Positions 41,701 through 64,000 of a stretch of 64,000 nt of DNA are shown here, one piece after another. Position 1 is the stretch's first letter; each line of letters begins with the position of its first letter. The position numbers and the translations under genes were made by a program. Source of the DNA: Candidatus Saccharimonadota bacterium (GTDB lineage Bacteria > Patescibacteriota > Saccharimonadia > Saccharimonadales > SLHW01); assembly GCA_024635455.1 (NCBI GenBank), contig JAGXIU010000003.1, forward strand, positions 290,446-354,445, given 5' to 3'. The notes under the pieces are model-generated. The model searched no databases and was not told the DNA's origin. It saw only the letters and a program-made list of their open reading frames with translations.

Positions 41701-44160
41701 AAATCTTACGAAGCCGCCACTGTTACCGTGCATCAAGACGAGTACACTGTCGTCGCTATTGAAAGTGCTACCGAGCACTGTTCCAGGAATCGTAATATTG
41801 CCGTTGGAAATGTTGGTCCAGTTGGCAGGATCGGGGTCGGAGGAGTTGACAAAAACGACAGAGTTCGTAACAGGAGAATGTCCAACTACAAGAGTGTTTT
41901 CATCATTCGTAAAAAGCAAGCTTGCAGTATCGCCGGGTATGTTGATGTTGCTGTTGCTAATAGTATCCCAATCAGAAGGACTGACTGACTGCGGATTAAC
42001 ATCACTGTAGACTTCACCGCCACTGAAGTCGAGTGTACAGACGGCACCAGGGCCAAGCTCGGCGTACTGAAGCTTGTAGTTACCCTCTCCGACTGGCAGG
42101 TCACCAAGGTCTGTAGACATGCTGGCTCGCAAACGGAATGGCGTGTCCTCAGCCGGCGCAGTCACGGGAGTGTCTTGGGTGGCTAAGGGGCTACCAACCA
42201 AAGCCTCACTCGAGTACATAATCTGGTCATCAATAACAGTCGCAGTTGTGATGTCATCACTGTCATAGGTGTGTACCCGTACAAAAAACGGGTCGTTAGT
42301 TTTTGTAATGTCATCAAAGGTGAAGCCAACTGTTTCGTCCACGGCAAAGGCTTGAGCAGGGTTTTTGTTAATAACTATTTCATTAGTACTCGTATTAGTC
42401 GCGTCTTTGCTAAACCCAGTTGCTCCCCCTTGAGAATCAATCGTAAAGCCTGACACGTCTAAACCAGCGGGCGGTGTACAGGTTCCGCCATCTGCTATAG
42501 GATTGTTCTCGCAGTACTCAAAACGGAAAGCTCCTACGCTACTGGCTGTAGGCATATCAAAGCTAAACTCCTGTTGGCTCTCTAAGGTAAACGATCTAAC
42601 AGGGCGGTAGTTCGCAGAGTTATCTCTTGTAGTATTGCTCGCCTGGTTGCCACTTCCAAAAAATTGAAACCAAGCGGTGGTGGCAGTTACCTGAGAGGAG
42701 CTGAAATGAGGTAACGCTACATCAAAGCTACCAAGACCTTGCAAATGTAGGTTCACGTACATCTTATTCAGCTCAGCCTTGCTTGGCAAAAACCAATCAT
42801 TAAAACTGTTTAACGTATAGTTATCACTCTCACGAGCTGCGATTCCAGCAGTAGCACATCCTGCCAATATATCCTGAGTATTCTGCCTACCTGTACCTAT
42901 GTTAACGCCATTGGCCCCGCCTATTAAAGTACCAGAACACCCCCATGGTGCGGTGCCAGTAGATGTGGGAGCAGACTCGTAATAGGTACCGTCGTCTATG
43001 TGGAAAATAAGACCGCCTGCAGGACCGGTATCACCGAGGCTGTACGCCGGTACGGCAAAAGGATTGCTATCTACGACAACCGTGTGACTGGGCTCATTGT
43101 CAAACCAGCGGTAACTACTCTGCTCTAGGTCGACAGCTGGAGTGTAGGTCAGATCGACGTAGACGCTGGCGACGCGGATTTCATCAGCGCGGTTGCTTGG
43201 GTTACCACCACCAACAACGTTCCGCGTGAGTTGAACTTGTAGGCTGTCGATGTCAGCTTGGGTCCAGGAGCCGGTGTAGGAGATGGAGAACCAAGCGTAG
43301 CTGCCTATTGGGTATATGGTGGAGGCAGTTTGTAGTGTTCCATTGATACGGGCGTTAAGGCTAAGAGTGTCGATTTCCACCGAACTTGGATTTGCGGTGA
43401 CTGAGGTGGCGAAAACCCTGATTGTTATGCTGGTAGCCTCATCGATATTGCTAGCGGTGGACATAGTAAATTCATCAGTGTAGCTTGAGTTGGCAGTATC
43501 GGTGGCGATATAGCTAGCCATGTCTGGCGTGCTCCCGTCGTCTATCTCAGTGTAGTGGGACGTGCCGGTGGTGGTTGGCCAGCCGGTGGTAACGTCGCTG
43601 TCAGGAACTAAATCAGCGTTGGCGGCCTGCACGCTGAGCGCAAAGAATGGCAGAATCGCAATAGTCAAAAGAAAGCCGCCAAGCGCTGGGAAGAAGTGTT
43701 GACGGTACCAGGCTTTAAGCGTAGCTGGGAGTGTGCGTAGGAATGAACGGAGTGTTGCGGGGAACGCACGCAATCTTGCTGGAGCTTGGGTTATTGCTGT
43801 ACGGATAGTTTGCGGAGTGTTTTTGATGGTGAGACGAGCTGACGAGAATATACTGCGCCAGGTTCGCTGTGAGTTTGGAGCCGATGTTTGCTGACTGGGT
43901 TGCGTAGGAGGCTCGAGCGGAGTTGGGCTATGGCTCAGTTCGTTCGGGGTGGTTGAGTTGGCGGTGTCATTGTCCTGAATCTCAAGATTGGGCGTAGTGT
44001 CTGCTGAGTTGTTTGGTGTGGGAGGCTCGACGCGTTGTGGTTGCTGGCGAGCGTGGGTTGGCCCCGAGCGAGGAGGCTGTATGGCATTGCGTTCTACGAC
44101 TCGCACATGAATACGGGTTTGTTCTGCTGATTGAGTTGTTGAATCTTGTTTTTTTGTCAT
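38767..44160 (-). CDS. giant secreted/surface protein 2 (1797 aa) carrying a DUF1566-like module plus DSSDPDPANW-type and delta-60-like beta-propellers
   Basis: Uninterrupted 5.4-kb ORF with the same N-terminus, anchor and C-terminal tail as gene 1. Core contains FNDWFLPSKAELNKMY (DUF1566/Lcl-C-like), 7 x (ITFVDSSDPNPANW) blades and 7 x (W.(I/V)EKR...TG.L...FG..G) blades. Confidence 0.9.
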   Translation of the reverse strand: MTKKQDSTTQSAEQTRIHVRVVERNAIQPPRSGPTHARQQPQRVEPPTPNNSADTTPNLEIQDNDTANSTTPNELSHSPTPLEPPTQPSQQTSAPNSQRTWRSIFSSARLTIKNTPQTIRTAITQAPARLRAFPATLRSFLRTLPATLKAWYRQHFFPALGGFLLTIAILPFFALSVQAANADLVPDSDVTTGWPTTTGTSHYTEIDDGSTPDMASYIATDTANSSYTDEFTMSTASNIDEATSITIRVFATSVTANPSSVEIDTLSLNARINGTLQTASTIYPIGSYAWFSISYTGSWTQADIDSLQVQLTRNVVGGGNPSNRADEIRVASVYVDLTYTPAVDLEQSSYRWFDNEPSHTVVVDSNPFAVPAYSLGDTGPAGGLIFHIDDGTYYESAPTSTGTAPWGCSGTLIGGANGVNIGTGRQNTQDILAGCATAGIAARESDNYTLNSFNDWFLPSKAELNKMYVNLHLQGLGSFDVALPHFSSSQVTATTAWFQFFGSGNQASNTTRDNSANYRPVRSFTLESQQEFSFDMPTASSVGAFRFEYCENNPIADGGTCTPPAGLDVSGFTIDSQGGATGFSKDATNTSTNEIVINKNPAQAFAVDETVGFTFDDITKTNDPFFVRVHTYDSDDITTATVIDDQIMYSSEALVGSPLATQDTPVTAPAEDTPFRLRASMSTDLGDLPVGEGNYKLQYAELGPGAVCTLDFSGGEVYSDVNPQSVSPSDWDTISNSNINIPGDTASLLFTNDENTLVVGHSPVTNSVVFVNSSDPDPANWTNISNGNITIPGTVLGSTFNSDDSVLVLMHGNSGGFVRFVDSSSSDPGQWDNITNGISLPGVGWGARFSNDDNVLVLLHAGGNNITFVDSSDPNPANWSTITNNNIVFSSDGLDAVFSSDGDTLVLVHGGGDAITFVDSSDPNPANWSEITNNNVSLPNTSYKAIFNNDESLLIAAHRNNDKVTIIDSSDPDPSQWSIINNDNVYATGDAYDVAFNSDETILAIGHSFGDGITLVDSSDPDPTKWKLIPNSNIAVDNELIAAVAFAKNDNVLVFGHADGGNISFIDSTSVNTDPVAFYDNPDMTDGQGVAATADDPNPGSGTAVLQDYVESNPFTNSSIIPNGDYGIWDFSLVDNRAPGEAKFCFRTVDDTGGELSTYSVMPELNIEPPTLVQDDYRWFENGPSDVEFGTAGVIQSNFTANHDAAYDIAKDDQHMYVIGYEGVNGIDWRIEKRRLTDGALCTAAACGTEFGTGGGVTSNATANNDRPHRVLVDENYIYVAGYQTTSISPSTDSEWRVEKRDKITGELVTGFGASGFVTSNPGPADDEARSMAMDDQYLYIGGFYNASGDDQWRTEKRDKTTGDLVTGFGTNGVIQDNHSSGEDIMWAVAVDGSDLYLGGYDEADGALDAVIRVEKRDTTTGDLITGYANNGVYRNNFTPSGTDSLMYNTLVVDGDYVYFAGQAGDVATSSWHIMKQNKTNGALCDNTTDCPEGVFDSDGILLVDIASGGGTVTGLSFDGSYMYMVGTNTDTSNWQIEKRLKSDATPDTAFGSNGVVTYSQSATQEDPRGMVIDNTHMWVVGYDYAPGNYQWNIQKRKLTSGNLVDSANAEGATVGATLATQNQPASIDENQNARLRALVNVSVKDLGVSDFKIQYAPRIGDSCSTDFSGYAYLDIAPASDFISFYDSQLIATGESFKPSANDPDGGLVLSRQSYVESNNFSTLSLVPRESSAMWDFSLTEDASLGGNYCFRIVKSDGSLLDGYQYIPEISTPPRPQQFLRHGRWFDTGEQGRPFYW

Positions 44161-51147: not shown

Positions 51148-52254
51148 CTAGACCAATTGTTCCCACGGTAAGTCTAGCTTGCCAAAGTGGCCGTAGGCAG
51201 AGGTTGGCTGGTAAATTGGTCGACGCAAATCGAGCGTCTCGACAATCCCCTTCACCGATGTGTCGATGAGCTTGGCCGCAAAGGTATCAAGCTTAGACTG
51301 AGATACGGTTTCGGTGCCGAATGTTTCGATGGTTTGCATCAGCGGCTTTGGCTGGCCAATAACGTAGGCCAAGCCGACCTCACAACGCGAGGCTAGTTTT
51401 TGCGACACGATGTTTTTGGCAATATAGCGCGCTGCGTAAGCGCCGCTACGGTCGACCTTGCTCGGATCTTTACCGCTAAACGCTCCGCCGCCAACGCGAG
51501 CGTAGCCGCCGTAGGTATCGACCACAATCTTGCGGCCAGTCAATCCGGCATCAGAGTCTGGCCCTGGGATGTGCCAAACACCGGTACCGTTTATGATGAT
51601 GTTGTTTTTCTTTGGCACGGCTAGTCCAAAGCTTTCCAGCACCGGTGCAACGATGTGCTTGATGGCGTCAGCTCGAACTTCATCTGGCTCTGTCTCTTCG
51701 TGGTGGGCTACTGCCAATACCAGTTTTTCTACCGCTACCGGCTTATCGTCTTCGTAACGCACAGTCACCTGGGCCTTGCCGTCTGGCCGCAGCCACGCTA
51801 ACTTGTGCTCTTCCTGCTGCTGGTCAATGCGCCTGGTTAAGGCGTGCGCCAGACTGATTGGAAGTGGCATCAAGGCTTCAGTCTCGTCAACCGCGAAACC
51901 AAACATCATCCCCTGGTCACCTGCTCCGTCTTGATCAACGCCGACAGCGATTTCTGGCGACTGTTGGTGAACAAAGTTATGGAAGTTGGACTGGTCCGAA
52001 AAGCCCCAAGCTGGCTCGTCATAGCCGAGCGTTCGCACGGTGTCGCGTGCGATCGTCTCAAAATCCACAGTTGCGCGTGACTTGATTTCACCGAACAGGC
52101 TAATCTGATTGGCCCCAACCACCGCTTCGATACCGGTTCGGCTATAAGGGTCTTGAGCAATTGCGGCGTCAAGTAATGCATCGCTAATACGGTCGCAAAT
52201 TTTATCTGGGTGACCGCTACAAACGGATTCGCTGGTAAATAATCGTGTGGACAT
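51148..52254 (-). CDS. metK: S-adenosylmethionine synthetase
   Basis: GHPDKICD, GAGDQGMMFG and GGGAFSGKDPSKVDRS motifs. Confidence 0.95.
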   Translation of the reverse strand: MSTRLFTSESVCSGHPDKICDRISDALLDAAIAQDPYSRTGIEAVVGANQISLFGEIKSRATVDFETIARDTVRTLGYDEPAWGFSDQSNFHNFVHQQSPEIAVGVDQDGAGDQGMMFGFAVDETEALMPLPISLAHALTRRIDQQQEEHKLAWLRPDGKAQVTVRYEDDKPVAVEKLVLAVAHHEETEPDEVRADAIKHIVAPVLESFGLAVPKKNNIIINGTGVWHIPGPDSDAGLTGRKIVVDTYGGYARVGGGAFSGKDPSKVDRSGAYAARYIAKNIVSQKLASRCEVGLAYVIGQPKPLMQTIETFGTETVSQSKLDTFAAKLIDTSVKGIVETLDLRRPIYQPTSAYGHFGKLDLPWEQLV

Positions 52255-52473: not shown

Positions 52474-52630
52474 ATATCCTTTCTTGGCTTCTCAGCTTCA
52501 GAAAGGATATATCTCACGAGAAAATATCAATCCTGGGCTGTTTGTGCCAGGTCTAGTTGGAGCACCTTATCTTGATGATAGGTTGCTGGCGGATTAACGA
52601 GCTAGATCTCTCCCCGCGCTCTTTATATTC
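52474..52630 (-). promoter_or_regulatory. candidate SAM-I-clan riboswitch (aptamer ~52522-52630) plus SD-sequestering hairpin (52474-52510)
   Basis: The minus-strand RNA has several SAM-I-like elements. P1 is GAAUAU/AUAUUU. AUAAAGAG corresponds to the AUCAAGAG consensus. P2 is GCGG...CCGC with loop AGAUCUAG. P3 is GCAACC-hairpin-GGUGCU. J3/4 CUAGA is complementary to the P2 loop UCUAG (pseudoknot). P4 is CCUGG-N9-CCAGG. An 11-bp hairpin, AUAUCCUUUCU...AGAAAGGAUAU, covers the AAGGA SD 11 nt before the ATG. Confidence 0.5.
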
Positions 52631-52669
52631 TTAAATTGTTAACGTTTATACTGTAGCACGAACGCTGCG

Positions 52670-53113: not shown

Positions 53114-53243
53114 AATAACTCCTCTCAAAGTTCGTATAATTAGTACTATACTACCATGATTATGCCATTCTGTCGTGAGCTTTTTTATCAGAATGCCTAG
53201 ATAATATAACGCAGATTATGTATAATTCCCCCTGTCCAAACAT

Positions 53244-53317
53244 TGGGGATTAGCCAAGCGGTAAGGCAGCGGATTCTGGTTCCGCGATCGGGGGTTCGAA
53301 TCCCTCATCCCCAGCCA
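53244..53317 (+). tRNA. tRNA-Gln (anticodon CUG), CCA encoded
   Basis: Hand-folded: acceptor TGGGGAT/ATCCCCA, D arm GCC-AAGCGGTAA-GGC, anticodon arm GCGGA-TTCTGGT-TCCGC, T arm GGGGG-TTCGAAT-CCCTC, discriminator G, CCA. 74 nt. Confidence 0.9.
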
Positions 53318-53834
53318 TGAATGTGTTGATGAGCTTTTGCTCGTCGATACATTCATTGACACGGAGTGTTGGGTTTCGAACCCCCGTAGAATGAGCGCAA
53401 GCGAATGTGGGGTTCAGGGATTGAGCTTCACGCGCAGATGCTCGCATCGAGCATGAAGTGAAAAGCCACGATGTCATCCCTCATCCCCAGCCATGAAATG
53501 ACACCACCTTTGTGTGGTGTTTTTTCATGGCTCAAGTGGTTCGAACCCCCGTAGAATGAGCCGTAGCGAATGTGGGGTTCGGTGGAGCGAAGTCACGCGC
53601 AGAAGCTCGCTTCGAGTAAGCTTGAGCGGAAGAGACGAAGGCGATATCCCTCATCCCCAGCCATGAAAGAGAGTCACCTTGCGTGGCTCTTTTTCATGGC
53701 TATGAGTTGGGTTCGGTTCTCCGATCAGCGAACGAATGTGAGCAAGATCGGGGATTCGGGCATCAAGCTCGCGCGCAAGAGTTTACTCTGAGCACGAGTG
53801 CAGCATGCACTATGTCATCCCTCATCACCAGCGA
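53317..53834 (+). repeat. tRNA-proximal hairpin plus three tandem ~170-nt units (U1 53361-53530, U2 53531-53702, U3 53703-53834), each ending in a copy of the tRNA 3' end
   Basis: ATCCCTCATCCCCAGCCATGAA is identical at 53302 (the tRNA itself), 53476 and 53646; a degenerate form (ATCCCTCATCACCAGCGA) lies at 53817. In the tRNA, U1 and U2 the CCA is embedded in a long hairpin (CCATGAA...TTCATGG), followed by a T-run only in U1 and U2; U3's degenerate end has no hairpin. Confidence 0.85.
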
Positions 53835-54302
53835 GTGAATATGTACGTAGATTTTTTAATATGATTCTTGGATGTCAAGAAATGAAGACAGTCCCCTACT
53901 CTCAGCATCCCTTGAAACTTTTCCAAAGTAAGATTCGGTTGAGGCAGCTCAAGACACAAGTGACTCTACTGCTTATTAAAGAGCAGAAATTAGCTCTCTT
54001 GCTGAAGCTCCTGGCATCACACCACCTAGCGATGATTTGCTCGAAGATCACTTAGGACGAGTTGGTGCCAGAAAACTTCTAAACGAAAACCCGATTAGAG
54101 GCGGCAGATACTATTGGTTGCTGTAAGCCTTGGATTGTTATACTTCATTCCTTGATTTCCTTAAATAAACTTTTGTTATTTTTTACTTAAATAAAAGTTT
54201 TATTCTCGAATACTAGCTCCACCGTTGACTGACTAGAAATATTTTTATGCTCATGCTAAAGTAAATTTATGGATACTAAATCATATGTGAGGTGCACTTT
54301 AT

Positions 54303-56132
54303 ATGGTAAATATACGTCAACACTTGGCACAGACACTCCGTGCCGGATCTAGTTATGTCAAAAAACATCAAACCGTCGCTTTCTCAGAGTTATTCGCGCT
54401 AGCTGCCCTCCTCGTCCTTGGTTTGTCTTTTGCTTCATCTTCCACCAAGACGCTGACCTACCAAGGCAGTTTACATCACAAGGCTCCAGTTGAGACCTAT
54501 AACATCCGCTCAGCTGAAGGCGCATTTACTGCAGAACTCACATTTGCCGAGGACAAAAAAAATAATGCCGTCAATACTATGACTTTGGCCTTGCATGACG
54601 ATCAGGGTACACAGCTTGCCTTCAGTGAAAGTGGCAGTCCGGTTGCTATTTTTAACGAAGTTAACAAAGGTGAATACCGGATTACCGTTTCTACCAACGA
54701 CAGCTTTAAGGGCAATTCAGATTACACTCTCAAGGTTACTGTGCCAGCTTCAGACACAGTAGCCCCTTCAGTCAGTATAGATTCTCCCGGCAATGACGCT
54801 ACTGTCAGCGACACCATCTCAATCATCGTCACCGCCAGTGACGATGTAGCTGTAGACAGGGTAATTATACAAATAGATAACGGGGCAATACATACCTTGG
54901 ATAATACGGAGTCTTGGGAGTATAGCCTCGACACCACTACCCTCAACGACGGTGCTCACACAGCACTTGTCACCGCCTATGATACTTCTGAAAACGTAAC
55001 AAGTACTTCAGTTAGTTTTACGGTGGAAAACAGTACTCATAATGATGGTGTAAACACAGATGATAGCGAGAACACAACAGTTAGCGACTATTTATGGATT
55101 TCCCCGAGCACAATTGCTGATTTGCCAACAAGCGGTGATGCGTGGCAGGAAATTGTTGATGACGCAAATCGTCTGCCAGCAGACGGAGGCGGTGCTAGTG
55201 TTGGTGATCAGAACTCTAGGCACGACCAATATACGCTAGCTGCTGCACTTGCTTGTGTCCGTACCAACGAGACAAGCTATTGTGATAAAGCAACTGGTGG
55301 TTTACTCGATGCTATTGGCACAGAAACTGACGACAGAGGCCGTTGGCTGGCTGTTGGTCGCAATGTTGGTGCATATACGATTGCTGCAGATATCATGGAT
55401 CTTCGTGCTGACGGGGATCCCAACTCAGACGGGTCACAAATTGAAGCATGGTTATCTAATCTTCTAGAGCGAACTCTCGCAGATAACAACGACCCTGATG
55501 TACAGGAAAAACTTATACCGTTTGAGTCTGGCTCAAATGCGTCCGCACAAGAAGGGTTTGTTTACATAGCTATTGCAGCATATCTAGATGATCAGACTAA
55601 ACTTGATATAGGCTGGGATGCTTTCCGTACTTACGCTTGCGACCCTACTGCACCCGACAACGAGGATATCGATTTAGCCAAGGGTGTCGAGTATGGCTGG
55701 GCTCATGATGGCAGTAGCCCGTGTGCAATAAATCCACTGAATACTACCAAGGAAAGCGTGAGAATTGACGGTGCTATTATCAACGACATGCGTCGAGGCG
55801 GATACTTCACGGATCCCCCAGGCTATACCCAATACCCTTGGGTTGGTTTGGAGGGATTTGTACCAGCAGCTGTCGTACTTCAACGATCTGGATACCCAGC
55901 CTTTGACGTGGCGGATCAGGCAGTGCTAAGAACATTCCAGTATCTCGATTACCTTAAAGACAGAACTGGCGATACCAGGTGGTTCGATGGTAATCGAGCT
56001 GCAGAGACAATTCAGATTGTTAATACGGCATACGGTGAAAATTTCCTAATTTCCGTATCGGGTATTGGCGACGGAAGAACATTCGGATATACAGACTGGA
56101 CTCATACAGCCCAGTCAACGATTTACCCCTAA
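54303..56132 (+). CDS. secreted/membrane-anchored protein with bacterial Ig-like domain and uncharacterised C-terminal domain
   Basis: GAGGTG SD and an N-terminal TM. Ig-like segment: VAPSVSIDSPGNDATVSDTISIIVTASDDVAVDRVIIQIDNG...VSFTVEN. The ~340-aa C-terminal region has no motif I can name. Confidence 0.75.
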   Translation: MVNIRQHLAQTLRAGSSYVKKHQTVAFSELFALAALLVLGLSFASSSTKTLTYQGSLHHKAPVETYNIRSAEGAFTAELTFAEDKKNNAVNTMTLALHDDQGTQLAFSESGSPVAIFNEVNKGEYRITVSTNDSFKGNSDYTLKVTVPASDTVAPSVSIDSPGNDATVSDTISIIVTASDDVAVDRVIIQIDNGAIHTLDNTESWEYSLDTTTLNDGAHTALVTAYDTSENVTSTSVSFTVENSTHNDGVNTDDSENTTVSDYLWISPSTIADLPTSGDAWQEIVDDANRLPADGGGASVGDQNSRHDQYTLAAALACVRTNETSYCDKATGGLLDAIGTETDDRGRWLAVGRNVGAYTIAADIMDLRADGDPNSDGSQIEAWLSNLLERTLADNNDPDVQEKLIPFESGSNASAQEGFVYIAIAAYLDDQTKLDIGWDAFRTYACDPTAPDNEDIDLAKGVEYGWAHDGSSPCAINPLNTTKESVRIDGAIINDMRRGGYFTDPPGYTQYPWVGLEGFVPAAVVLQRSGYPAFDVADQAVLRTFQYLDYLKDRTGDTRWFDGNRAAETIQIVNTAYGENFLISVSGIGDGRTFGYTDWTHTAQSTIYP

Positions 56133-56520
56133 TCGTATAGTCCTAGGCCACTACGATCGATAACCGAAATCAACGGCGGATGACATGTTGCGTTTATCTG
56201 ACGAAGGGGTATGGTTTTTAGCACCGGGAGCTTAAAGCAGCACTTAAATCACAAGCCGACGTATATTGAAACCTTTATTAACTAATGCTTGTCACTTCCG
56301 ATTAGATGCATGTAATACTAGCGATACTAATTTTCCGTAATCGATCGCGTAAAGATTTTATCCCGCTTGCCCCGTAGCCAGTCTCGTCATCAAATCCGAC
56401 CAAAGCTTTACCCACGAGTTCAACAAGAACGGCACCTACTCCTGCCGAGACTTATTCAATCTCTAAACCAGCGATTCAGTTGTAGTAGCTGAGCAGGAGC
56501 AGAACACCCCTCCTACAGCG

Positions 56521-57117
56521 TTAGGGTAATCTTCCGAGGAAAAGAGCCCGAAGGCTAATGCTGATCCATATGAATGATATGAAAGTGAAGCAGAGAAAGG
56601 TCAGCGCCGAAAGAAGAATGCGTACCATGTCGGTACTATAGATAATTCCTGTTATTGATATTTCTGTCAACGGTACGGCTAAGTAGGCTAGCCCGGCAAT
56701 TACACCTAGGATTATGCTCGCAGCTAGAAGGTGAAAAATGGCGTGAAGCGCAATACTACCCCAAAATGACAGCTGATTAAAATTTTTAGGGTGCTGGTAC
56801 CGAAATGCTATGTTGAAGTCTCTCACTACCTCATCCGATCCTCGCTTTATGTAAAGCGCGACAGAAAATACAACTACTCCTAATAGATACCATAAAATGT
56901 ATTGGACAACATTTTCAATTGCAGGCAGCTGGCTTAGTCCAGATAGCCAAGAGTTGATTGTCTCACCAACAAATACTCGTGTTTCATATGTTATTGACGG
57001 ATCCGTAGTTTTGAGGTGGGTATAGATTAAGCTGCCCCCAAGTATAAGAATGGAAAGAAACCCGTATAGTAGTGATTCTAACTTAGATGGCAGTATCCAC
57101 GCTAGGTGTTTCTTCAT
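56521..57117 (-). CDS. polytopic membrane protein, hypothetical
   Basis: 198 aa with about 5 hydrophobic helices. Confidence 0.6.
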   Translation of the reverse strand: MKKHLAWILPSKLESLLYGFLSILILGGSLIYTHLKTTDPSITYETRVFVGETINSWLSGLSQLPAIENVVQYILWYLLGVVVFSVALYIKRGSDEVVRDFNIAFRYQHPKNFNQLSFWGSIALHAIFHLLAASIILGVIAGLAYLAVPLTEISITGIIYSTDMVRILLSALTFLCFTFISFIWISISLRALFLGRLP

Positions 57118-57436
57118 TAAGTTTATTTTAACGTAAAAATTGCAAACATCGTAGTTCTTGTGCTTTTAGCTAGTTGTGTTAAGCGATTAAAACTTATCAT
57201 CGAAGATGGTCTGGCAGGCAGACGCAGACTTTACATAGGTCATTCTGAAAATTAGGCCTCAGGATGAAGGAGTTTGCCGCTGTATGACATATACCAGCAC
57301 AATCATATAGAACTTTAATCTGGTCTTTGCTCGCAAAACCCCTCTTTTTTCTCTAAGCAATAATCGATAGCCTTTGTGCATTTGTGCGCCATCCCTAACA
57401 CCTTTTATCTGAATCTGTTTGCGACTTGATCCAAAC

Positions 57437-57721
57437 TTAGTCGATTTGCTTAACGTAAACACGTAGGCCTCCTTTCTTAGTTCTTTCAAAATGAATATCT
57501 GTCTTGGGGTCGGTAAGCATAGACTCATAATGGACAAGTGCGTTAACACCTATGTCAGCAAACATAGGGCTTGCACTGGCTACATCTGCCTCAGGTTCTT
57601 CAACTTGCTGATTTTCACTGTCATCAAAATCAGCTCGTAGGTACATATCATTCTTCTGATAAACGGTATATCGAGGACGTCGGTTGTAGCGAACACCAAC
57701 AACAATCCACTCGATAATCAA
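57437..57721 (-). CDS. hypothetical protein (possibly disrupted)
   Basis: 94-aa ORF. A second ORF in another frame (57259-57549) overlaps its 3' end, which is compatible with a frameshifted gene. Confidence 0.35.
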   Translation of the reverse strand: MIIEWIVVGVRYNRRPRYTVYQKNDMYLRADFDDSENQQVEEPEADVASASPMFADIGVNALVHYESMLTDPKTDIHFERTKKGGLRVYVKQID

Positions 57722-57785
57722 CCGACCCTTGATACGAATTGCCAGGGTTAAAAATATAGCTGATATTACGCCAACAATGATTACC

Positions 57786-57971
57786 TTTTCATGGCTATGA
57801 GTTGGGTTCGGTTCTCCGATCAGCGAACGAATGTGAGCAAGATCGGGGGGGGTTCGGGCATCAAGCTCGAGCGCAAGAGTTTACTCTGAGCACGAGCGCA
57901 GCATGCACTATGTCATCCCTCATCCCCAGCCATGAAAGAGAGTCACGCAAAGGTGACTCTCTTTCATGGCT
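57786..57971 (+). repeat. unit U4 of the tRNA-3'-end repeat family, with a perfect 19-bp terminal hairpin
   Basis: Well over 90% identical to U3 by eye (a few substitutions and one small indel) from TTTTCATGGCTATGAG onward. ATCCCTCATCCCCAGCCA at 57915-57932. Hairpin AGCCATGAAAGAGAGTCAC-gcaaag-GTGACTCTCTTTCATGGCT at 57928-57971. Confidence 0.85.
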
Positions 57972-58018
57972 GCATGTATTTCGAATCTCTTACATCCATG
58001 CGCGAACGGCTAGACTCC

Positions 58019-59788
58019 CTAGTTCCCTATCCGGGTGCCGCCTTGTATGTTAGCCCCGCCGTCTATGTACGTGTTGCCGCTCGCCGGTGCTGCCGCTGTG
58101 GTGAAGCTGAAGATACTTGAAACAGTGCTTTCGGTGTTGCTTCCACCTGGATCAATGGCGTAGGCACGCCACCAGTACTGGGTAGAGTATTCGAGTAATG
58201 GCTCTTGGTACTGGTGTGAGGCAAGCGTAGAGCCGCCCAGTGTGGTACTAGTGACATATGCACTCCCGGTTAAGGCATCCTGACCGCTCCACCCAGTTTG
58301 ACTGAGTGTTTGGTCGATAGTACGAAGAACGCTTAAACAAGAGTTGTCTTCACAAAGCTCAATACGATAGCGGACAGCATTCGACTCCGAGTCAGTTGTA
58401 CGGAGCTGCAGAGTTGGCTGCAGGCTCACGTCAATTGCTGTGTCTGCAGGGGTACTGAGAGTTGGTGCGGCTGGTGGCTGGTTAACCGGCGGTGGGTCTA
58501 CAGTAGTAAAGCTATAGATACTAGAAATGCTACCTTCGGTGTTGCTGCCGCCTGGGTCAATAGCATACGCACGCCACCAATATTGGGTACTTTCACTAAG
58601 TGCTGGGTCTTGGTAAGTATGGCTAGCTAGGGTTGAGTTAGCCAGAGTGCCACTACCAACGTATGCCGTACCAGACTCGGCATCTTGCCCGCTCCAGCCC
58701 ACCTGGCTCGTAGATTGGTCGATAGTGCGCACTATAACCGAACAGTCGCTAACCGAACACACCTCAATACGGTAGCGCAAGTAGTCATTTTCAGCGTCGG
58801 AGGAGCGCAACTGGAAAGTGGGCGTCACAATCACGTCAGTTGCTGTGTCTGCAGGGGTACTGAGAGTTGGGGCAGACGGCGGCTGGTTGGCTACTGGGAC
58901 TGGATTAATTGCAAGTATTTGCCCAGCATTAGTCGTGTTGGTGCCAGTTGCCGTCCGTGTGCCGGTACCCCCAGCAGTAGGCCAAGGCTCTTGAGCAATA
59001 CGGACAGCATTACGTGCACTGTCTTGGCCAGCGCCAGAAGCTATAAAGCCCACGCTAATCATGCTGGCTGGCTCAGCAATATTATTGCCGCTATCATGTC
59101 CAAAAAATCCAACTAGCATTGTATTATCCCGATTTGGAGAAATTGAAGGGGCGACAATATTTATCCCAGTGTTCTTCTGTTTACCAAAAACATTTATAGG
59201 ACTCGCTGTATCTATACCACTGTAGGTCGCGGCAACAGCAATTGCCTTTCGGCTATCAACCTCAAAACCAGTCTGAGTAAAATAATTAAAATCAAATGTA
59301 TAACTAGTCGGATCTCCTGACTGAATGACACGACTATATATTATCTGTTCACTGCAAGGGGCCGAAGTTAAGCCTGCCGAGTTACCACACGACAATTCAG
59401 TACTCATTACTTCAGTCAACAAGTTGCTACTAACAGTACCTGTACTCGTACCCTCTTTTGAGCTTACAACTATCAATAATAGATCACCTGCTACTGCCTC
59501 GGTGGGCACATTTATTATGATAGAACTGGCGTTGTTCACAGAAGCAGTCGTGGCCGTACCGCGCTGCTGAATTTGCGCGCTGATATTAGTCGGTGAAATA
59601 ATAAATACAGTAGCCAGGCTAAATATTACTACAATCAAAAGCAAGATAATTTTCGCTGCATATTTACTCAAGTCCGGCCACACGCCAGAAAGCCTACTCT
59701 GAGCGAATTCGCCTAATGAATCTGAACACGCAGCTACATCTATATCGTATGTATAATTTTTACTACTGTAACGAGATAGTGAGCGCAT
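58019..59788 (-). CDS. secreted/membrane-anchored protein with two tandem ~135-aa FN3/Ig-like repeats
   Basis: N-terminal TM (IILLLIVVIFSLATVFII). Internal duplication (NQPP[SA]APTLSTPADTA.DV...YWWRAYAIDPGGSNTE...FSFTT) at ~58085-58485 and ~58497-58890. Confidence 0.75.
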   Translation of the reverse strand: MRSLSRYSSKNYTYDIDVAACSDSLGEFAQSRLSGVWPDLSKYAAKIILLLIVVIFSLATVFIISPTNISAQIQQRGTATTASVNNASSIIINVPTEAVAGDLLLIVVSSKEGTSTGTVSSNLLTEVMSTELSCGNSAGLTSAPCSEQIIYSRVIQSGDPTSYTFDFNYFTQTGFEVDSRKAIAVAATYSGIDTASPINVFGKQKNTGINIVAPSISPNRDNTMLVGFFGHDSGNNIAEPASMISVGFIASGAGQDSARNAVRIAQEPWPTAGGTGTRTATGTNTTNAGQILAINPVPVANQPPSAPTLSTPADTATDVIVTPTFQLRSSDAENDYLRYRIEVCSVSDCSVIVRTIDQSTSQVGWSGQDAESGTAYVGSGTLANSTLASHTYQDPALSESTQYWWRAYAIDPGGSNTEGSISSIYSFTTVDPPPVNQPPAAPTLSTPADTAIDVSLQPTLQLRTTDSESNAVRYRIELCEDNSCLSVLRTIDQTLSQTGWSGQDALTGSAYVTSTTLGGSTLASHQYQEPLLEYSTQYWWRAYAIDPGGSNTESTVSSIFSFTTAAAPASGNTYIDGGANIQGGTRIGN

Positions 59789-60371
59789 GCTTTTTTTGGT
59801 GGATCCGTTATGTGACTAATGCTTTATATTGTACCCTAGCACAACCGTACAATAAACTTTTTTACGTACAGGCACTGCCCAGGGTGCGCAAGCACTCCCA
59901 CCAAAGTGGAATTACTAATCTATATAAGTCAGTTAACGGTGTAGATTCGAAATATATGCTTATGTAGCTACACTTATCAACCAGATGTGTATTCATGTAT
60001 ACTCATCCCGCCCACTCCGACGTAACGCCACCCAATTAAAAATGCTTGATATTTCAAGTGTAGTGTAGAAACTGTCTATTTAGTGCGCTCATGAACTTGT
60101 ACATCTAGGAATACTCGTAGTCTCATTGTACGATTTTCTTGTTGCTACCCTTCGGCAGCTCGAGCTCCTAGCCCTGAACTAGACACAGTTAGCATATTGT
60201 GTATGATCCGATTATGGCGTGCCGTATATGTGATGTGATAGTGACACCTCATGAGGCTATTAGAGAAAATTTAGCAAGACCTACCTATCAGGAGGCCTGT
60301 TAATACTCCTAATCTAATAACCGTGGCCTCTTTTGTAGTATCAAGACCAAGAAATCTTCATGAAACTGACC

Positions 60372-60562
60372 CACTAGCCACAGACAAAGAAAGTCCAGGC
60401 ATCAAAGCCGGGTTTTTCTTTGGCTCGAGTGCCTCGAACCCCCGATGCGTCCGTCATATATGACGGACAAGCATTCGGCGGGTTCGGGCATCAAGCTCGC
60501 GCGCAAGAGTTTACTCTGAGCACGAGTGCAGCATGCACTATGTCATCCCTCACCCCCAGCCA
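60372..60562 (+). repeat. unit U5 of the tRNA-3'-end repeat family, preceded by a degenerate junction and hairpin
   Basis: CCCACTAGCCA, then hairpin CAAAGAAAGTCCAGGC-atcaaa-GCCGGGTTTTTCTTTG. The following 60-nt core GGGCATCAAGCTCGCGCGCAAGAGTTTACTCTGAGCACGAGTGCAGCATGCACTATGTC is identical to U3. Ends in ATCCCTCACCCCCAGCCA (60545-60562). Confidence 0.8.
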
Positions 60563-60907
60563 AGACGGACATTTAAATAGACCTATCTAGGTCTATATTT
60601 ATATAATCATGCCGTGAAATATGCATTGAACGAAAGTAATACAATCTGTTAAAAATCTTGACGTATTACACTTTTTGAAGCCATCGCTTTATCAACCAGT
60701 ACTAATATGTTTAATAAACATCTTGGTTCGTTTTACTCTCAAACTCTTGCATAAGTTATCTTGTGTCGTAGCGCACTGACAGCACACAGTAGTTTGCCCT
60801 ATTGTTGTATTAGCAAGCAACTTATGGCTCGCTAGGCACGGGAGTGGCAATGTTGAGGAAGTAAGTTAGGTATTGCTCTACTATATTAATTAATAGAAAG
60901 GTTTCTT

Positions 60908-61057
60908 ATGTTGATAAAAATTGCAATCGGATTGTTTATATTATGGGCGCTTGGTTTTTTCGCGACGAATATAGGCGGAGGTTTAATTCACATCCTGTTA
61001 GTGGTAGCACTTGTTCTATTTATATATAACATGCTGACCAGCAAACGAAGCGCATAG
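60908..61057 (+). CDS. lmo0937-family small membrane protein (49 aa)
   Basis: Below the track's size cutoff. Own translation: MLIKIAIGLFILWALGFFATNIGGGLIHILLVVALVLFIYNMLTSKRSA. GAAAGG SD upstream. Confidence 0.6.
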   Translation: MLIKIAIGLFILWALGFFATNIGGGLIHILLVVALVLFIYNMLTSKRSA

Positions 61058-61198
61058 CATAAAGCGATAATTATATTTGGCAAGTTCAATGCACCTCAAG
61101 TTAGAACAAGGGGCATGAGTAGTGGCGACCCAAAGTATGTATGAATTCGTTTATATAACGAGTTATATTAAGATTTTTAGACGGAAGGGAGGTTTTAA

Positions 61199-61714
61199 AT
61201 GTTGAAAAAAGTAAGTGTTCTACTGTTCACTGTCGGTTTGCTGGGAATTAGTTTTTACGGTATGTCTAACAACTCGTACTACGTACAGATACTCATGAAT
61301 CTAAGTACGCTTTTTATATATATCCGCATCGCGATTGTTGCGATCCTATTAACCTACGTTTTCGTACCGAGCATACGACTCTACACAACAAGAACCCTGC
61401 TTAGTATTAGTGGTATTTTGCTAGTATCACTCGGAGTGATTAGCTTAGCCTCCCCTTCCTTGTTGGGGTACACCAGTCCATATATATTACTTGGAGACAC
61501 GTTAACTCTAATTGAAGCAGGTATATTTGCAATCATACTCAGCGCTGAACTTTCTGCTCAAAGATCCAGGTTTATTGCTAGAAGTTATCATTACGTACGG
61601 TTACTAATTGGTTTTCGACCTAGAGCTGTATCATACCAGCCAGCAATGTATATAATCATGGCTCAGAAGAATCAACTAAAGCTAAAACCAGTAAAAACTT
61701 ACTCAATCTTATAG
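61199..61714 (+). CDS. polytopic membrane protein, hypothetical
   Basis: GGGAGG SD; 171 aa; 4-5 TM helices. Confidence 0.6.
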   Translation: MLKKVSVLLFTVGLLGISFYGMSNNSYYVQILMNLSTLFIYIRIAIVAILLTYVFVPSIRLYTTRTLLSISGILLVSLGVISLASPSLLGYTSPYILLGDTLTLIEAGIFAIILSAELSAQRSRFIARSYHYVRLLIGFRPRAVSYQPAMYIIMAQKNQLKLKPVKTYSIL

Positions 61715-61821
61715 TCTCTGTAAATTGATAAATCACTGAACCCAAGCTACAAATTTAATTAAAACTTTTCTTTGATTGTATACCAACCCTCATACCTGTG
61801 TGTCGTGTGCTAGCTCAAACT

Positions 61822-61852
61822 AAAAAGACCTCCATTCACTGGAGGTCTTTTT
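61822..61852. terminator. bidirectional rho-independent terminator AAAAA-GACCTCCA-ttcac-TGGAGGTC-TTTTT
   Basis: Perfect 8-bp GC-rich stem flanked by A5 and T5, between convergent genes 61199-61714 (+) and 61862-62071 (-). Confidence 0.8.
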
Positions 61853-61861
61853 ATCATGGTT

Positions 61862-62071
61862 TTAGGCGTACCTGTCCCTCATTCTTCTGGCAATGTGTCG
61901 GAATTCTTGCCTCATTGAAGCGCTATTTTCCAATAACTCGGCCTCGAGTTCTGGTGATGTGCCGTCAGATGTATAATCCAGTGGCTCGTTTGCATTATAG
62001 AGATACGCTTGGTAATGAACTTTTGAATGCTTTTGATGTTTGTTCTTTATTGCAGAATATGATCTTGACAT
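61862..62071 (-). CDS. small basic/acidic hypothetical protein (69 aa)
   Basis: ATG at 62071 preceded by AGGAGGAGTAAT. The track's longer version (to 62137) has no SD. Confidence 0.55.
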   Translation of the reverse strand: MSRSYSAIKNKHQKHSKVHYQAYLYNANEPLDYTSDGTSPELEAELLENSASMRQEFRHIARRMRDRYA

Positions 62072-62244
62072 ATTACTCCTCCTATTAATAGGTTGCAGAA
62101 CAAAGCCTAGCAATTTTCGTAACACTCCCCCCTTCAATGATGTGCCAAAAAAGATAGCTACTGAATCTATAATAGTACTAATGCTATACGCTGTATGTGC
62201 GCTCTATCACGGAATTAAGCTGCACAAAGGTATATACTATCACT

Positions 62245-62922
62245 ATGTCAACAAATCAAATGGCTGGTATGCCCAATTTAGGAACTACAGATGAAAGCAT
62301 CATCGCTCATTTCAGCGACGGGTTACTTATGCAGTTCACTGATAGAGAAACTATCATTAATGGTCTGGATGAACCTGAGGGTATATATCTAATCAAAAAA
62401 GGCTTCGTGAAAGCATACTCTACATCAAAAGCAGGCAATGGAAATCTATTATTAATACACACTGTTGGTGAGTTTATACCTCTGCCCTGGGCACTGGACG
62501 GAGCACATACAACTGGACTATTTTATGAAGCAATGTCAGATGTGACTGTACTCCGTGCTTCTAAAGATGAATTGCGTACGGCAATGGGTAAAAATGCTTG
62601 GTTATCTCAAGAGATATTAAAGCAAGCTGTGGCCATTATTACTGCCTACACTCAGAGAATACAAACTTTAGAATTTAGATCTGCTAGAGGAAGAATAATT
62701 GCCGAAATACTGGCTCTATCTGAAAGGTTTGGAGAAAGACGTGGTAAAGAAGTACTAATTAATGCTCCGCTAACACATCAGGATATTGCAGATTCAATTA
62801 ATATGAACCGCGAAACAGCAAGCAGAGCATTAGAGCAGCTTTTTCAAGAAGGTTTATTGGGCCAAAAAGATCATCTTATTTCAATACTAGATCTTCCTGA
62901 GCTACAAGAAGCACTTAGTTGA
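62245..62922 (+). CDS. Crp/Fnr-family transcriptional regulator
   Basis: cNMP-binding beta-barrel (GIYLIKKGFVKAY...) and a C-terminal HTH (THQDIADSINMNRETASRALEQL). Start ambiguous (62197 GTG or 62245 ATG). Confidence 0.8.
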   Translation: MSTNQMAGMPNLGTTDESIIAHFSDGLLMQFTDRETIINGLDEPEGIYLIKKGFVKAYSTSKAGNGNLLLIHTVGEFIPLPWALDGAHTTGLFYEAMSDVTVLRASKDELRTAMGKNAWLSQEILKQAVAIITAYTQRIQTLEFRSARGRIIAEILALSERFGERRGKEVLINAPLTHQDIADSINMNRETASRALEQLFQEGLLGQKDHLISILDLPELQEALS

Positions 62923-63156
62923 TATTATCTGCTAGAAAGTAAAGAATGATTAGTGCTACTTATTGGTGTGTTAGAGGAATTGGCACCTCACGAAAGGTAG
63001 CAAATCCTACTCGTGGCAATATTGAAGTGACAGGAAGTATCATGCGAGAAAAATTCAAAAAACTGCTTAATAATTATAAAGATTGGCAGAAACAATAGTA
63101 GCCTTTTTTAATGTCTGTTTTATCTTGTTTTAGCCTATTGCGATGCATCAGACCGA

Positions 63157-63218
63157 CACCCCCAGCCAAGCAAGTAACCTTATTCTTCAATAGTGTTACT
63201 TGCTTTGGCTGCTTTTTT
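63157..63218 (+). repeat. distal partial copy of the tRNA-3'-end motif (CACCCCCAGCCAAG) embedded in a terminator hairpin
   Basis: 14-nt identity with the U5 end (60551-64). Hairpin AGCCAAGCAAGTAAC-N16-GTTACTTGCTTTGGCT then GCTTTTTT, which is the same 'CCA inside a hairpin' architecture as the other units. Confidence 0.55.
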
Positions 63219-63276
63219 ACTTATCATTTCTGCGTCGAACGTCTTGAAAATTTCCTAGTAAACCCTAGCAACTTTA

Positions 63277-63981
63277 CTAGTCGTCATCAGATGAATCATC
63301 GTCATCGTCTGAGCTAGACTCATGGTCATCTTCCTCGTCATCAGAGCTGTCATCAGAACTATCATCGTCAGAGCTCGAAATATCGTCATCGCTGTCACCA
63401 CTACGTACTCTCATGATATCGCCGTTGCCTGCATTGACATCAACCCGGCCATCGTCGCTAAATCGCACGCTATAGACGACAATGCCTTCTTCTGTTTCTA
63501 GCTCAATTTTGGTTATAGTTTTTCCTGGACGCTCATTCTGGGCAATTTGACGTGCTTCATTGATTGAAACTCCGGCAACAAAACCAGATGGCACCGATTC
63601 GTCCACTTCTACATCGCTCCTATTTCTCGTAACAAGTACGCCAGTTGATGCGTCGTAGTAGCGCACACTACCGTCGCTGTAAGAAACTTTATATAGCAAG
63701 CCCTCGTCTTCGTTATCTAGCTCTATACTTACGATTGTTAGCGAAGGCTCATCTATGAGCGCCTTAGCCTGAATGTCGTCGATTGTCATAAACCCTGCTA
63801 GATCTGATGGCAGCTCAATTTCCGCTTGCCTGGATTGTTCTGCTCGATTATTAGTTACTAATGCAGATGTGCCTCCGACAGCTACTAAAGCAATTATTAC
63901 TGCTGTTAGCGGAACTGTATTATTTTGTTTAAAAAATGCGGATAGTCGCGTTAGTGGATTTACTTTATTTGCTTTTGCCAT
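63277..63981 (-). CDS. PepSY domain-containing membrane-anchored protein with poly-Asp/Ser tail
   Basis: N-terminal TM, two PepSY-like segments (...LLYKVSYSDGSVRYYDASTG..., ...IVVYSVRFSDDGRVDVNAGNG...) and the C-terminal tail SGDSDDDISSSDDDSSDDSSDDEEDDHESSSDDDDDSSDDD. Confidence 0.75.
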   Translation of the reverse strand: MAKANKVNPLTRLSAFFKQNNTVPLTAVIIALVAVGGTSALVTNNRAEQSRQAEIELPSDLAGFMTIDDIQAKALIDEPSLTIVSIELDNEDEGLLYKVSYSDGSVRYYDASTGVLVTRNRSDVEVDESVPSGFVAGVSINEARQIAQNERPGKTITKIELETEEGIVVYSVRFSDDGRVDVNAGNGDIMRVRSGDSDDDISSSDDDSSDDSSDDEEDDHESSSDDDDDSSDDD

Positions 63982-64000
63982 GTGATTCTCCTTTAAGAAT

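Follow-up and report, generated by a model that had tools for sequence, protein, structure and literature searches.

The tRNA-Gln locus and its repeated units

The stretch of DNA considered here (64,000 nucleotides, hereafter the window) comes from a Candidatus Saccharimonadota bacterium (GenBank assembly GCA_024635455.1, contig JAGXIU010000003.1) and carries, towards its right end, an intact tRNA-Gln(CUG) gene followed by an accessory region in which gene segments are separated by repeated units. Since all of these units end in the 3' end of the tRNA-Gln, the region is an island array anchored on the tRNA. The first-pass annotation of the window had described a mosaic accessory region at 53835-63218; the accessory mosaic stands, but it is larger than that, as it starts at the end of the tRNA (53318) and runs to ~64790, past the end of the window. 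The copy of the tRNA-Gln 3' end that closes each unit, and which constitutes the attachment sequence, did not figure in that account. The MetK protein of the window has its best match (70% identical) in a Candidatus Saccharibacteria metagenome-assembled genome (MAG). Comparison contigs and loci, mostly metagenomic, are labelled with L-numbers below (L081 and L082 are viral). The tRNA, the units and the related boundary elements (type B repeats are treated further on) are as follows:

53244-53317, + strand: intact tRNA-Gln(CUG), anchor of the array (ARAGORN; Rfam tRNA model, 60.8 bits)
53318-53357, + strand: hairpin H1, directly after the tRNA CCA (in L100, H1 follows a unit core instead)
53374-53533, + strand: U1, with scaffold (53374-53476), tRNA-end copy (53477-53493) and terminator hairpin (to ~53533); covariance-model match 53374-53493, 113.7 bits
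53539-53702, + strand: U2, with scaffold, tRNA-end copy (53647-53663) and hairpin H2; covariance-model match 53539-53663, 98.4 bits
53711-53834, + strand: U3, with scaffold and decayed tRNA-end copy (53818-53834, 2 mismatches), without hairpin; covariance-model match 113.1 bits
57786-57972, + strand: U4, with the 3' half of an H2-type hairpin, scaffold, exact tRNA-end copy (57916-57932) and terminator (57927-57972); covariance-model match 57806-57932, 112.3 bits
60357-60380, + strand: type B copy TTCATGAAACTGACCCACTAGCCA, with hairpin to 60425; right boundary of cargo segment 2
60432-60596, + strand: U5, with scaffold including a long P1 hairpin, tRNA-end copy (60546-60562, 1 mismatch) and hairpin (60577-60596); covariance-model match 60432-60562, 99.3 bits, fold z = -5.6
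63153-63219, + strand: U6, a truncated boundary copy (..GACACCCCCAGCCA) with terminator hairpin and T-run; core 63157-63168 = CACCCCCAGCCA, hairpin to ~63211, below covariance-model detection

The sequence repeated in all units corresponds to the last 17-22 nt of the tRNA-Gln. Its 3' end, TCCCTCATCCCCAGCCA, closes every unit and is followed by a terminator hairpin (lacking in U3), the 5' foot of which contains AGCCA; in a terminator scan, several of them come out as intrinsic. With up to 3 mismatches allowed, TCCCTCATCCCCAGCCA occurs six times on the + strand (at 53301 in the tRNA, 53477 in U1, 53647 in U2, 53818 in U3, 57916 in U4 and 60546 in U5) versus 0.08 times in shuffled sequence, far above chance. 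The unit copies recognised in the first pass are indeed in place (57786-57972, 60372-60562 and 63157-63218). Truncated tRNA-end copies lie at 60370-60380 and 63157-63168. The block common to units and tRNA is ATCCCTCATCCCCAGCCATGAA, i.e. T-loop position 59 through CCA.

Upstream of the tRNA-end copy, ~105 nt are conserved across the units (the structured scaffold). The upstream strand of this scaffold (CGAACCCC...) is complementary to GGGGTTCG, the two making up a long hairpin, P1. A covariance model of the units recognises 5 full-length copies and no more in the window, at 98-114 bits and always on the + strand, while a direct-repeat search returns an 89-nt family at 53408, 53749, 57847 and 60477. 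What had been taken as a single fifth unit is composite: a unit is present at 60432-60562, but the left part (60357-60425) is a type B repeat with its hairpin. The earlier observation that U3 and U4 are identical from within a hairpin onwards holds, with 63 nt at 100% identity from TTTTCATGGCT (53691-53753 = 57786-57848).

A promoter scan places a promoter-like site at 53198-53226, upstream of the tRNA-Gln. Another promoter-like site (57739-57767, + strand; TTGCCA, 17 nt, GATATT) lies ~40 nt before the first hairpin of U4, which is the sole unit of the window with a site of that kind.

A conserved fold in the scaffold

From 5' to 3', a unit consists of P1, an outer helix P2a, a helix P2b, an internal loop (CGCGCA/GAGCA, conserved), P3 (a four-base-pair helix with a tetraloop), a variable hairpin, an A and the tRNA-like tail. 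In a hand-checked alignment of 14 sequences, 90.1% of the cells are paired, compared to 77% after shuffling and at most 47% when the pairing is slid, with compensatory changes in 11 of the 18 pairs. In the covariance-model alignment of all hits, which is biased towards structure by construction, the corresponding values are 90.6%, 71% and at most 53%, with compensatory changes in 17 of the 18 pairs. RNAalifold returned no structure on plain MAFFT alignments of whole units; it took sub-alignments and the alignment made with the covariance model to reveal one. The scaffold is structurally constrained. Many G:U pairs lie on the tRNA-sense strand, which implies that this is the strand that folds, either as RNA or as single-stranded DNA.

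The distribution of the unit was followed in metagenome contigs with the pattern GGGTTCNG, 45-75 nt, then ATCCCTCAYCCCCAGCCA. It matches 20 contigs, 8 of which are trivial (the tRNA end merely recurs as a short copy ~33 nt past the tRNA), leaving ~12 diverse and divergent contigs with true units. Most of the true units lie ~100 nt downstream of a tRNA-Gln (CUG or UUG), past its terminator, and all of them share the orientation of the tRNA. In L096, the unit tail carries the same C variant as the tRNA-Gln of that contig, which suggests that tRNA and unit have exchanged sequence.

As for the role of the scaffold, a folded recombination site or accessory site is the preferred guess, with a co-transcribed RNA element as the alternative. 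An independently promoted RNA gene is unlikely, because the gap between the preceding terminator and P1 is only ~10-25 nt. Rfam 15 has no match to the unit (only the tRNA and a SAM riboswitch reach the gathering score), and nothing credible was found over 53200-54000 at E-values up to 10. The unit had no blastn match in phage and plasmid collections; pattern scans of IMG/VR were empty, except for one that gave chance matches only, with 0 covariance-model hits in 80 loci.

Several other identities were considered and set aside. A tRNA-like gene or tmRNA does not fit, as nothing but the true tRNA is recognised by ARAGORN or by the Rfam models for tRNA and tmRNA, and a conserved 5' acceptor strand is lacking; the internal loop CGCGCA/GAGCA does not match the K-turn consensus; and the likeness of the GCATAAGC and TTATGC motifs to Xer arms, as in a dif/Xer-like site, is weak, by eye, and was judged unconvincing. 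The repeat starts directly after A58 of the T-loop and is 18 nt long, which is reminiscent of the primer-binding site of a retro-element, but this idea was dropped because the repeat is in the tRNA sense and because short copies elsewhere start anywhere from T54 to A58.

At the end of contig L090 (original coordinates 1-40, in tRNA orientation), the sequence CCCCAGCCAAGC TTAT GCTTGGCTGGGG forms a perfect palindrome with 12-bp arms across the tRNA-like end. This may be a genuine symmetric site or may have arisen in the assembly. Related motifs (GCTTATGC and GCATAAGC) come after the cores in several lineages.

Type B repeats and small-gene arrays

Besides the full units, a shorter type B repeat occurs (~30 nt, TTCCTGRAACACRWCCACTAWCCCCAGCCA), which has a tRNA-like end too. 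The copy in the window corresponds to TTCCTGRAACAC..CCACTAWCCCCAGCCA with a 6-nt deletion. U6 may also be of type B, as may a decayed copy that immediately precedes the right flank (~64736 in window coordinates). In L086 (2400-5600, - strand), six type B repeats, ending in CCCCAGCCA and 160-830 nt apart (290-550 nt in a run of five), separate single small open reading frames (ORFs; Ham1-like, HIT and cupin) that are co-oriented with the tRNA. This array lies downstream of the tRNA-Gln, is integron-like in appearance and has one structured unit embedded in it. Several ORF stop codons in the L086 and L094 arrays fall within the 30-nt repeat or a few nt before it. Type B repeats are furthermore present in L090, L091, L094 and L099.

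Alleles at the same site in relatives

L100, L227 and L228 represent one population, of which the left-flank protein is 61% identical to that of the window. Three alleles are found at its tRNA-Gln site, between flanks that are 100% identical (100% and 99.985% for L100). In the empty allele, L227, the tRNA-Gln is followed by 70 nt of debris (a remnant core and hairpin), one U3-type unit and the right flank, with its 532-aa gene and ABC ATPase. The insertion in L100 is 5,590 nt of cargo without an integrase, framed by direct repeats of 113 nt of the unit; it encodes a peptidase S51, an archaeal-type AdoMet synthetase, a glycosyltransferase and an inositol monophosphatase. Up to and including the last base of the tRNA, L228 has 100% identity, and from there on it consists of a recombinase-encoding element. 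Likewise, L094 and L099, which are 98% identical, differ in the cassettes that follow the same unit. Presence and absence in relatives, as anticipated in the first pass, are thus observed, and an identical arrangement throughout the relatives is not the situation here, because both L227/L100/L228 and L094/L099 differ among themselves.

The flanks of the window are syntenic with those of L100 and L227 (flank proteins of window and relatives are 53-76% identical), while everything from 53318 to ~64790 is missing there. The window and L100 have two modules in common, [H1 + U1 scaffold] along with [H2 + U3 scaffold], at 90-93% identity, compared to only 75% nucleotide identity in the left flank. 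The order of the two is not the same, and it is at the cores that the breakpoints lie.

The allele junctions coincide with the tRNA-like end (...CCCCAGCCA|) or lie inside it. This end forms the 5' foot of the CCATGAAA...TTTCATGG hairpin. The crossover point had initially been suggested to lie within this hairpin, on account of the U3/U4 identity that begins in its loop, but the junctions are at the foot and not in the loop. The start of the identity in the 3' half of the hairpin looks more like a secondary deletion or the endpoint of a homologous recombination event.

In L084, L085, L088, L089, L095, L101 and L102, a second short 3'-end copy, (T)TCGAATCCCTCATCCCCAGCCA, is present ~33 nt after the tRNA-Gln with nothing in between; such closely spaced copies may be empty sites or fully deleted elements. 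L006 (1-9700), from a distant Saccharibacteria MAG with the same metK and tRNA-Gln synteny, has two decayed tRNA-end copies, followed by genes for a rifampin ADP-ribosyltransferase (Arr-ms), an MFS transporter, a MarR regulator and a short-chain dehydrogenase, apparently resistance-type cargo at this hot spot.

Recombinases at tRNA-Gln

Searches by tblastn and hmmsearch, with enzymes from related loci as queries, matched neither tyrosine nor serine recombinases in the window or in L106, which extends it by 9 kb to the right, and Pfam revealed no recombinase in the 10 ORFs of the accessory region, nor among the 25 listed of the 65 families matched by 32 further ORFs of the window. This bears out the first-pass statement that no integrase is encoded in the window. 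The same searches (tblastn, hmmsearch) showed no integrase remnant after U3, U4 or U5, and a tyrosine recombinase near the tRNA is found neither in the window nor in the unit-bearing loci.

The first-pass annotation had left the mobilising function as lost, encoded elsewhere or unrecognised; it is indeed missing from the window, but concrete candidates exist in the form of serine recombinases in relatives and viral tyrosine integrases. At the same site as the island, recombinases are present in L228, L235, L237, L238, L099 and L102. The L228 element encodes a 500-aa protein with Resolvase and Recombinase domains, which reads towards the tRNA and has its stop codon ~77 nt from the CCA, as well as a Replic_Relax protein. 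In L238, another genome, the neighbour of a 99%-identical recombinase is a different tRNA-Gln(UUG); the end of the element (TACAGAACGC) is the same, and the L228 and L238 junctions have only CCCCAGCCA (9 nt) in common. Homologues with 76-77% identity abut tRNA-Gln in L235 and L237, and serine-recombinase genes are located within the arrays of L099 and L102. For L235 and L237, the far end (attR) of the element was not found within 10 kb. A 71% identical homologue in L236 (1-11600) abuts tRNA-Trp(CCA) instead; that element also carries defence-type genes (an Eco57I / ResIII protein, an SduA_C (Shedu) protein and a DUF2726 protein).

The viral contigs L081 and L082 (IMG/VR) carry the last 32 nt of tRNA-Gln, GATCGGGGGTTCGAATCCCTCATCCCCAGCCA, without the tRNA, and a tyrosine integrase adjoins this block in L082 and is ~1 kb away from it in L081. 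Relatives do have recombinases specific for the tRNA-like end. The viral block also bears on the make-up of the unit. GATCGGGGGTTCG, which corresponds to tRNA positions 45-57, is kept in the scaffold of U3, U4, L100a and L090, and its left limit coincides with that of the 32-nt tRNA block. It is for this reason that a unit can be described, in three steps, as a phage-attP-like tRNA 3' block, a ~60-nt structured module placed in the T-loop (G57 to A58/59), and the upstream strand of P1.

How the island may have formed

Following these results, the region is probably the integrase-less body of a tRNA-Gln-anchored gene-capture island, of a kind that recurs in Saccharibacteria, the segments of which would have been captured one at a time at tRNA-like ends by a recombinase that acted in trans or has since been lost. 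An intact tRNA at one boundary, direct repeats of the tRNA 3' end, and presence/absence polymorphism between conserved flanks are all in agreement with such an island. Each boundary unit comprises the ~105-nt structured module, the last 17-22 nt of tRNA-Gln and a terminator hairpin with the CCA in its 5' foot. Cargo modules would enter and leave by recombining at these tRNA-like ends, where they are joined at ...CCCCAGCCA|, and a new module would bring along a fresh tRNA 3' end and terminator while pushing the older modules distally. The enzymes that may have moved the segments of the window are the ~500-aa large serine recombinases of this site or phage tyrosine integrases with a tRNA-Gln attP. 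In addition, RecA-type recombination between units probably reshuffles modules, because the units are long (113-190 bp) and highly conserved; a contribution of homologous recombination is also suggested by the 113-nt repeat of L100 and by the U3/U4 identity that starts in the hairpin.

Several observations weigh against this reading. Serine recombinases normally leave no long direct repeats, and on their own they do not account for exact repeats of 17-22 nt together with a conserved 105-nt scaffold. The L100 repeat and the start of the U3/U4 identity fit homologous recombination equally well. None of the recombinase-bearing elements could be followed to its far end, so that no unit is physically tied to one, and with no recombinase in the window or the 9 kb beyond there is no sign that its segments remain mobile. 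Finally, the composition of segment 1 is core-like.

A more far-reaching possibility, which can be entertained only tentatively, is that the units and the 30-nt type B repeats are the recombination sites of a new, integron-like gene-capture platform of Saccharibacteria, in which the tRNA-Gln 3' end would serve as attI, every cassette would bring a folded attC-like site with a copy that restores the tRNA end and its terminator, and a recombinase in trans (possibly of a tRNA-Gln-specific large serine family) would move cassettes between strains. As in integrons, there is an array of cargo with repeated sites, structure is conserved above sequence, the ends are conserved and inverse (CGAACCCC...GGGGTTCG) and the cassettes are without recombinase; in L086 and L094 only, single small co-oriented ORFs also lie between the 30-nt repeats. 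The defining features of integrons are lacking, however, because the window has no IntI-type integrase, no GTTRRRY / RYYYAAC motif and no single-ORF cassettes, its segments being multi-gene and on both strands. Moreover, the anchor is a tRNA 3' end, the unit ends are CGAACCCC and GGGGTTCG with the junction at CCCCAGCCA (even though the units fold with covariation), and the recombinases observed are of the serine type. Serine recombinases act on duplex DNA.

It is unlikely that the units are portable homology blocks between which cargo is swapped by general (RecA) recombination after DNA uptake, without a dedicated enzyme. They would then resemble minimal mobile elements between conserved flanks, with the scaffold primarily a functional RNA or DNA element beside tRNA-Gln, retained on its own account. 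Identical unit sequence of 113 nt stands on either side of the L100 insertion, the U3/U4 identity starts at an arbitrary point of a hairpin, and the units are 90-94% identical where the flanks are 75% identical, as frequent gene conversion would give; a single unit follows tRNA-Gln even at the 'empty' loci L227, L096, L091, L093 and L098, and no recombinase was found in 14 of the 16 distinct array-bearing loci examined. Boundaries without scaffold (the type B 30-mers, U6 and the second cores 33 nt after the tRNA), on the other hand, are too short for efficient homologous recombination and typical of site-specific scars, and the recombinase-encoding elements join exactly at the CCA.

That the units are inert scars, i.e. 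attR sites left at a tRNA hot spot by prophages or islands that decayed long ago, in an array that is now fixed and functionless, is improbable. Scattered partial tRNA copies are a known by-product of successive integrations (bioRxiv 10.1101/2020.12.28.424599), the cores of U3, U5 and U6 are decayed, and no integrase is present. Yet the helices are kept through compensatory changes (in 17 of 18 pairs, at the pairing levels given above for the covariance-model alignment), the scaffold recurs in ~12 divergent contigs and is better conserved than the adjacent coding sequence, and near-identical genomes differ at the locus.

Very improbable, lastly, is that the unit encodes a guide-type RNA (scaffold plus a 17-nt tail matching tRNA-Gln) for an RNA-guided nuclease or recombinase, in the manner of TnpB omega-RNA or IS110 bridge RNA: the order of scaffold, 17-18-nt target-identical tail and terminator would suit it, as would the P1 5' strand being complementary to the left half of the tRNA T-arm with the tail identical to the right half, but the intact tRNA gene would be a permanent target, the short gap before P1 leaves no room for a promoter, and no TnpB, IscB or IS110-type family is among the 25 shown of the 79 Pfam families of the array loci, in the window results (10 ORFs and 25 of 65 families) or in the L100 and L086 scans, none of these searches being aimed at such partners.

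Relation to known systems

The tRNA-anchored gene-capture island, as favoured here, has its closest counterparts in islands built by successive integration, such as the Prochlorococcus islands with their tycheposons (bioRxiv 10.1101/2020.12.28.424599) and the Dehalococcoides ssrA islands (PMC3146451). Such islands have an intact tRNA or tmRNA at one end, scattered partial 3'-end copies, newer modules that push older ones distally, and strain-variable cargo with many modules lacking an integrase. At the present locus, however, each partial tRNA is fused to a covarying ~105-nt module and a terminator, some modules are only ~170 bp (hairpin and scaffold), and the recombinases at the site are of the large serine as well as the tyrosine type. 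The overall design is therefore best filed with the known tRNA-anchored successive-integration islands, the unusual part being the structured ~120 nt upstream of the tRNA-end copies.

Cis-mobilizable elements (CIMEs) are att-flanked stretches of cargo without integrase or transfer genes, arranged in tandem where integrase-bearing elements also insert. The cargo of the window is similarly att-flanked on both sides and without recombination or transfer genes, but the repeat is far longer and structured, and the Saccharibacteria arrays include very small cassettes. The likeness rests on the att-flanked cargo, derivation from an integrative and conjugative or mobilizable element (ICE/IME) being no part of it. 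With elements of large serine recombinases (phiC31 / Bxb1-type), the site shares the ~500-aa Resolvase+Recombinase protein at the element end by the attachment site, and the precise junction with short identity (9 nt in L228/L238), whereas the window has no such gene. Large serine recombinases are not known to make arrays with long direct repeats or to use structured sites.

Saccharibacteria and other bacteria of the candidate phyla radiation have tiny genomes, and how they gain accessory genes is little understood. The locus is a recurrent, strain-variable gene-capture site, and the captured modules encode surface and secreted proteins, small enzymes and regulators (in L006, the rifampin ADP-ribosyltransferase). 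Should the unit act as a folded site for recombination or as a guide-like RNA, it would add a new kind of substrate to those of site-specific recombination, and possibly an engineering handle for organisms that are hard to manipulate.

Cargo, composition and extent

The three cargo segments and their gene content are as the first-pass annotation described them, with the possibly disrupted ORF consisting of two overlapping fragments. Segments hold 1-4 genes each, on both strands:

53835-57785, both strands: cargo segment 1, core-like composition
54303-56132, + strand: 609-aa Big_7 secreted protein (segment 1)
56521-57117, - strand: 198-aa membrane protein (segment 1)
57259-57721, - strand: two overlapping ORF fragments (segment 1)
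57973-60356: cargo segment 2, with a 589-aa repeat-containing secreted protein (58019-59788, - strand) and its upstream region
60563-63152: cargo segment 3, lowest GC of the window, including a 171-aa membrane protein and a 91/69-aa ORF (- strand)
60908-61057, + strand: DUF5670 peptide (segment 3)
62245-62922, + strand: Crp/Fnr regulator (segment 3)
63277-64000, - strand: PepSY gene, start of a fourth accessory block, with an ECF sigma factor next, beyond the window

The fourth block (PepSY and ECF sigma factor) has no counterpart in the relatives L227 and L100, and the conserved right flank (532-aa gene and ABC ATPase) starts at ~64797 in window coordinates.

In 2.5-kb windows of the core, the GC content is 0.460 +/- 0.018 (minimum 0.421) and the tetranucleotide distance 0.193 +/- 0.021 (maximum 0.249). 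Segment 1 is core-like in both (0.437 and 0.185), segment 2 is beyond the core range in distance (GC 0.470, distance 0.286), and segment 3 is beyond it in both (0.377 and 0.343). The windowed composition check proposed in the first pass thus marks segments 2 and 3 as atypical, but not segment 1. The impression that the intergenic stretches are AT-rich applies to 6 of the 7 pieces (GC 0.35-0.41), but the seventh (56133-56520) is core-like at 0.456.

Short-read Logan contigs of the source samples (SRR13628065/66) that are 100% identical to the window stop exactly at unit borders: L103 at 53315, L105 covering 53795-57815 and L106 running from 60523. The units break short-read assemblies at their borders, and because the repeats fragment assemblies in this way, such islands may be systematically lost from MAGs or under-represented in them.

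Directly left of the tRNA-Gln locus, a SAM-I riboswitch (52521-52631, - strand, 48.9 bits) lies upstream of a 69-aa ORF and metK (51148-52254, - strand). Further to the left, two adjacent giant paralogous ORFs (33171-38534 and 38767-44160, - strand; 1787 and 1797 aa) contain internal 147-nt (49-aa) tandem repeats and are up to 94% identical to each other in stretches, in what is the region of highest GC in the window (~0.50).

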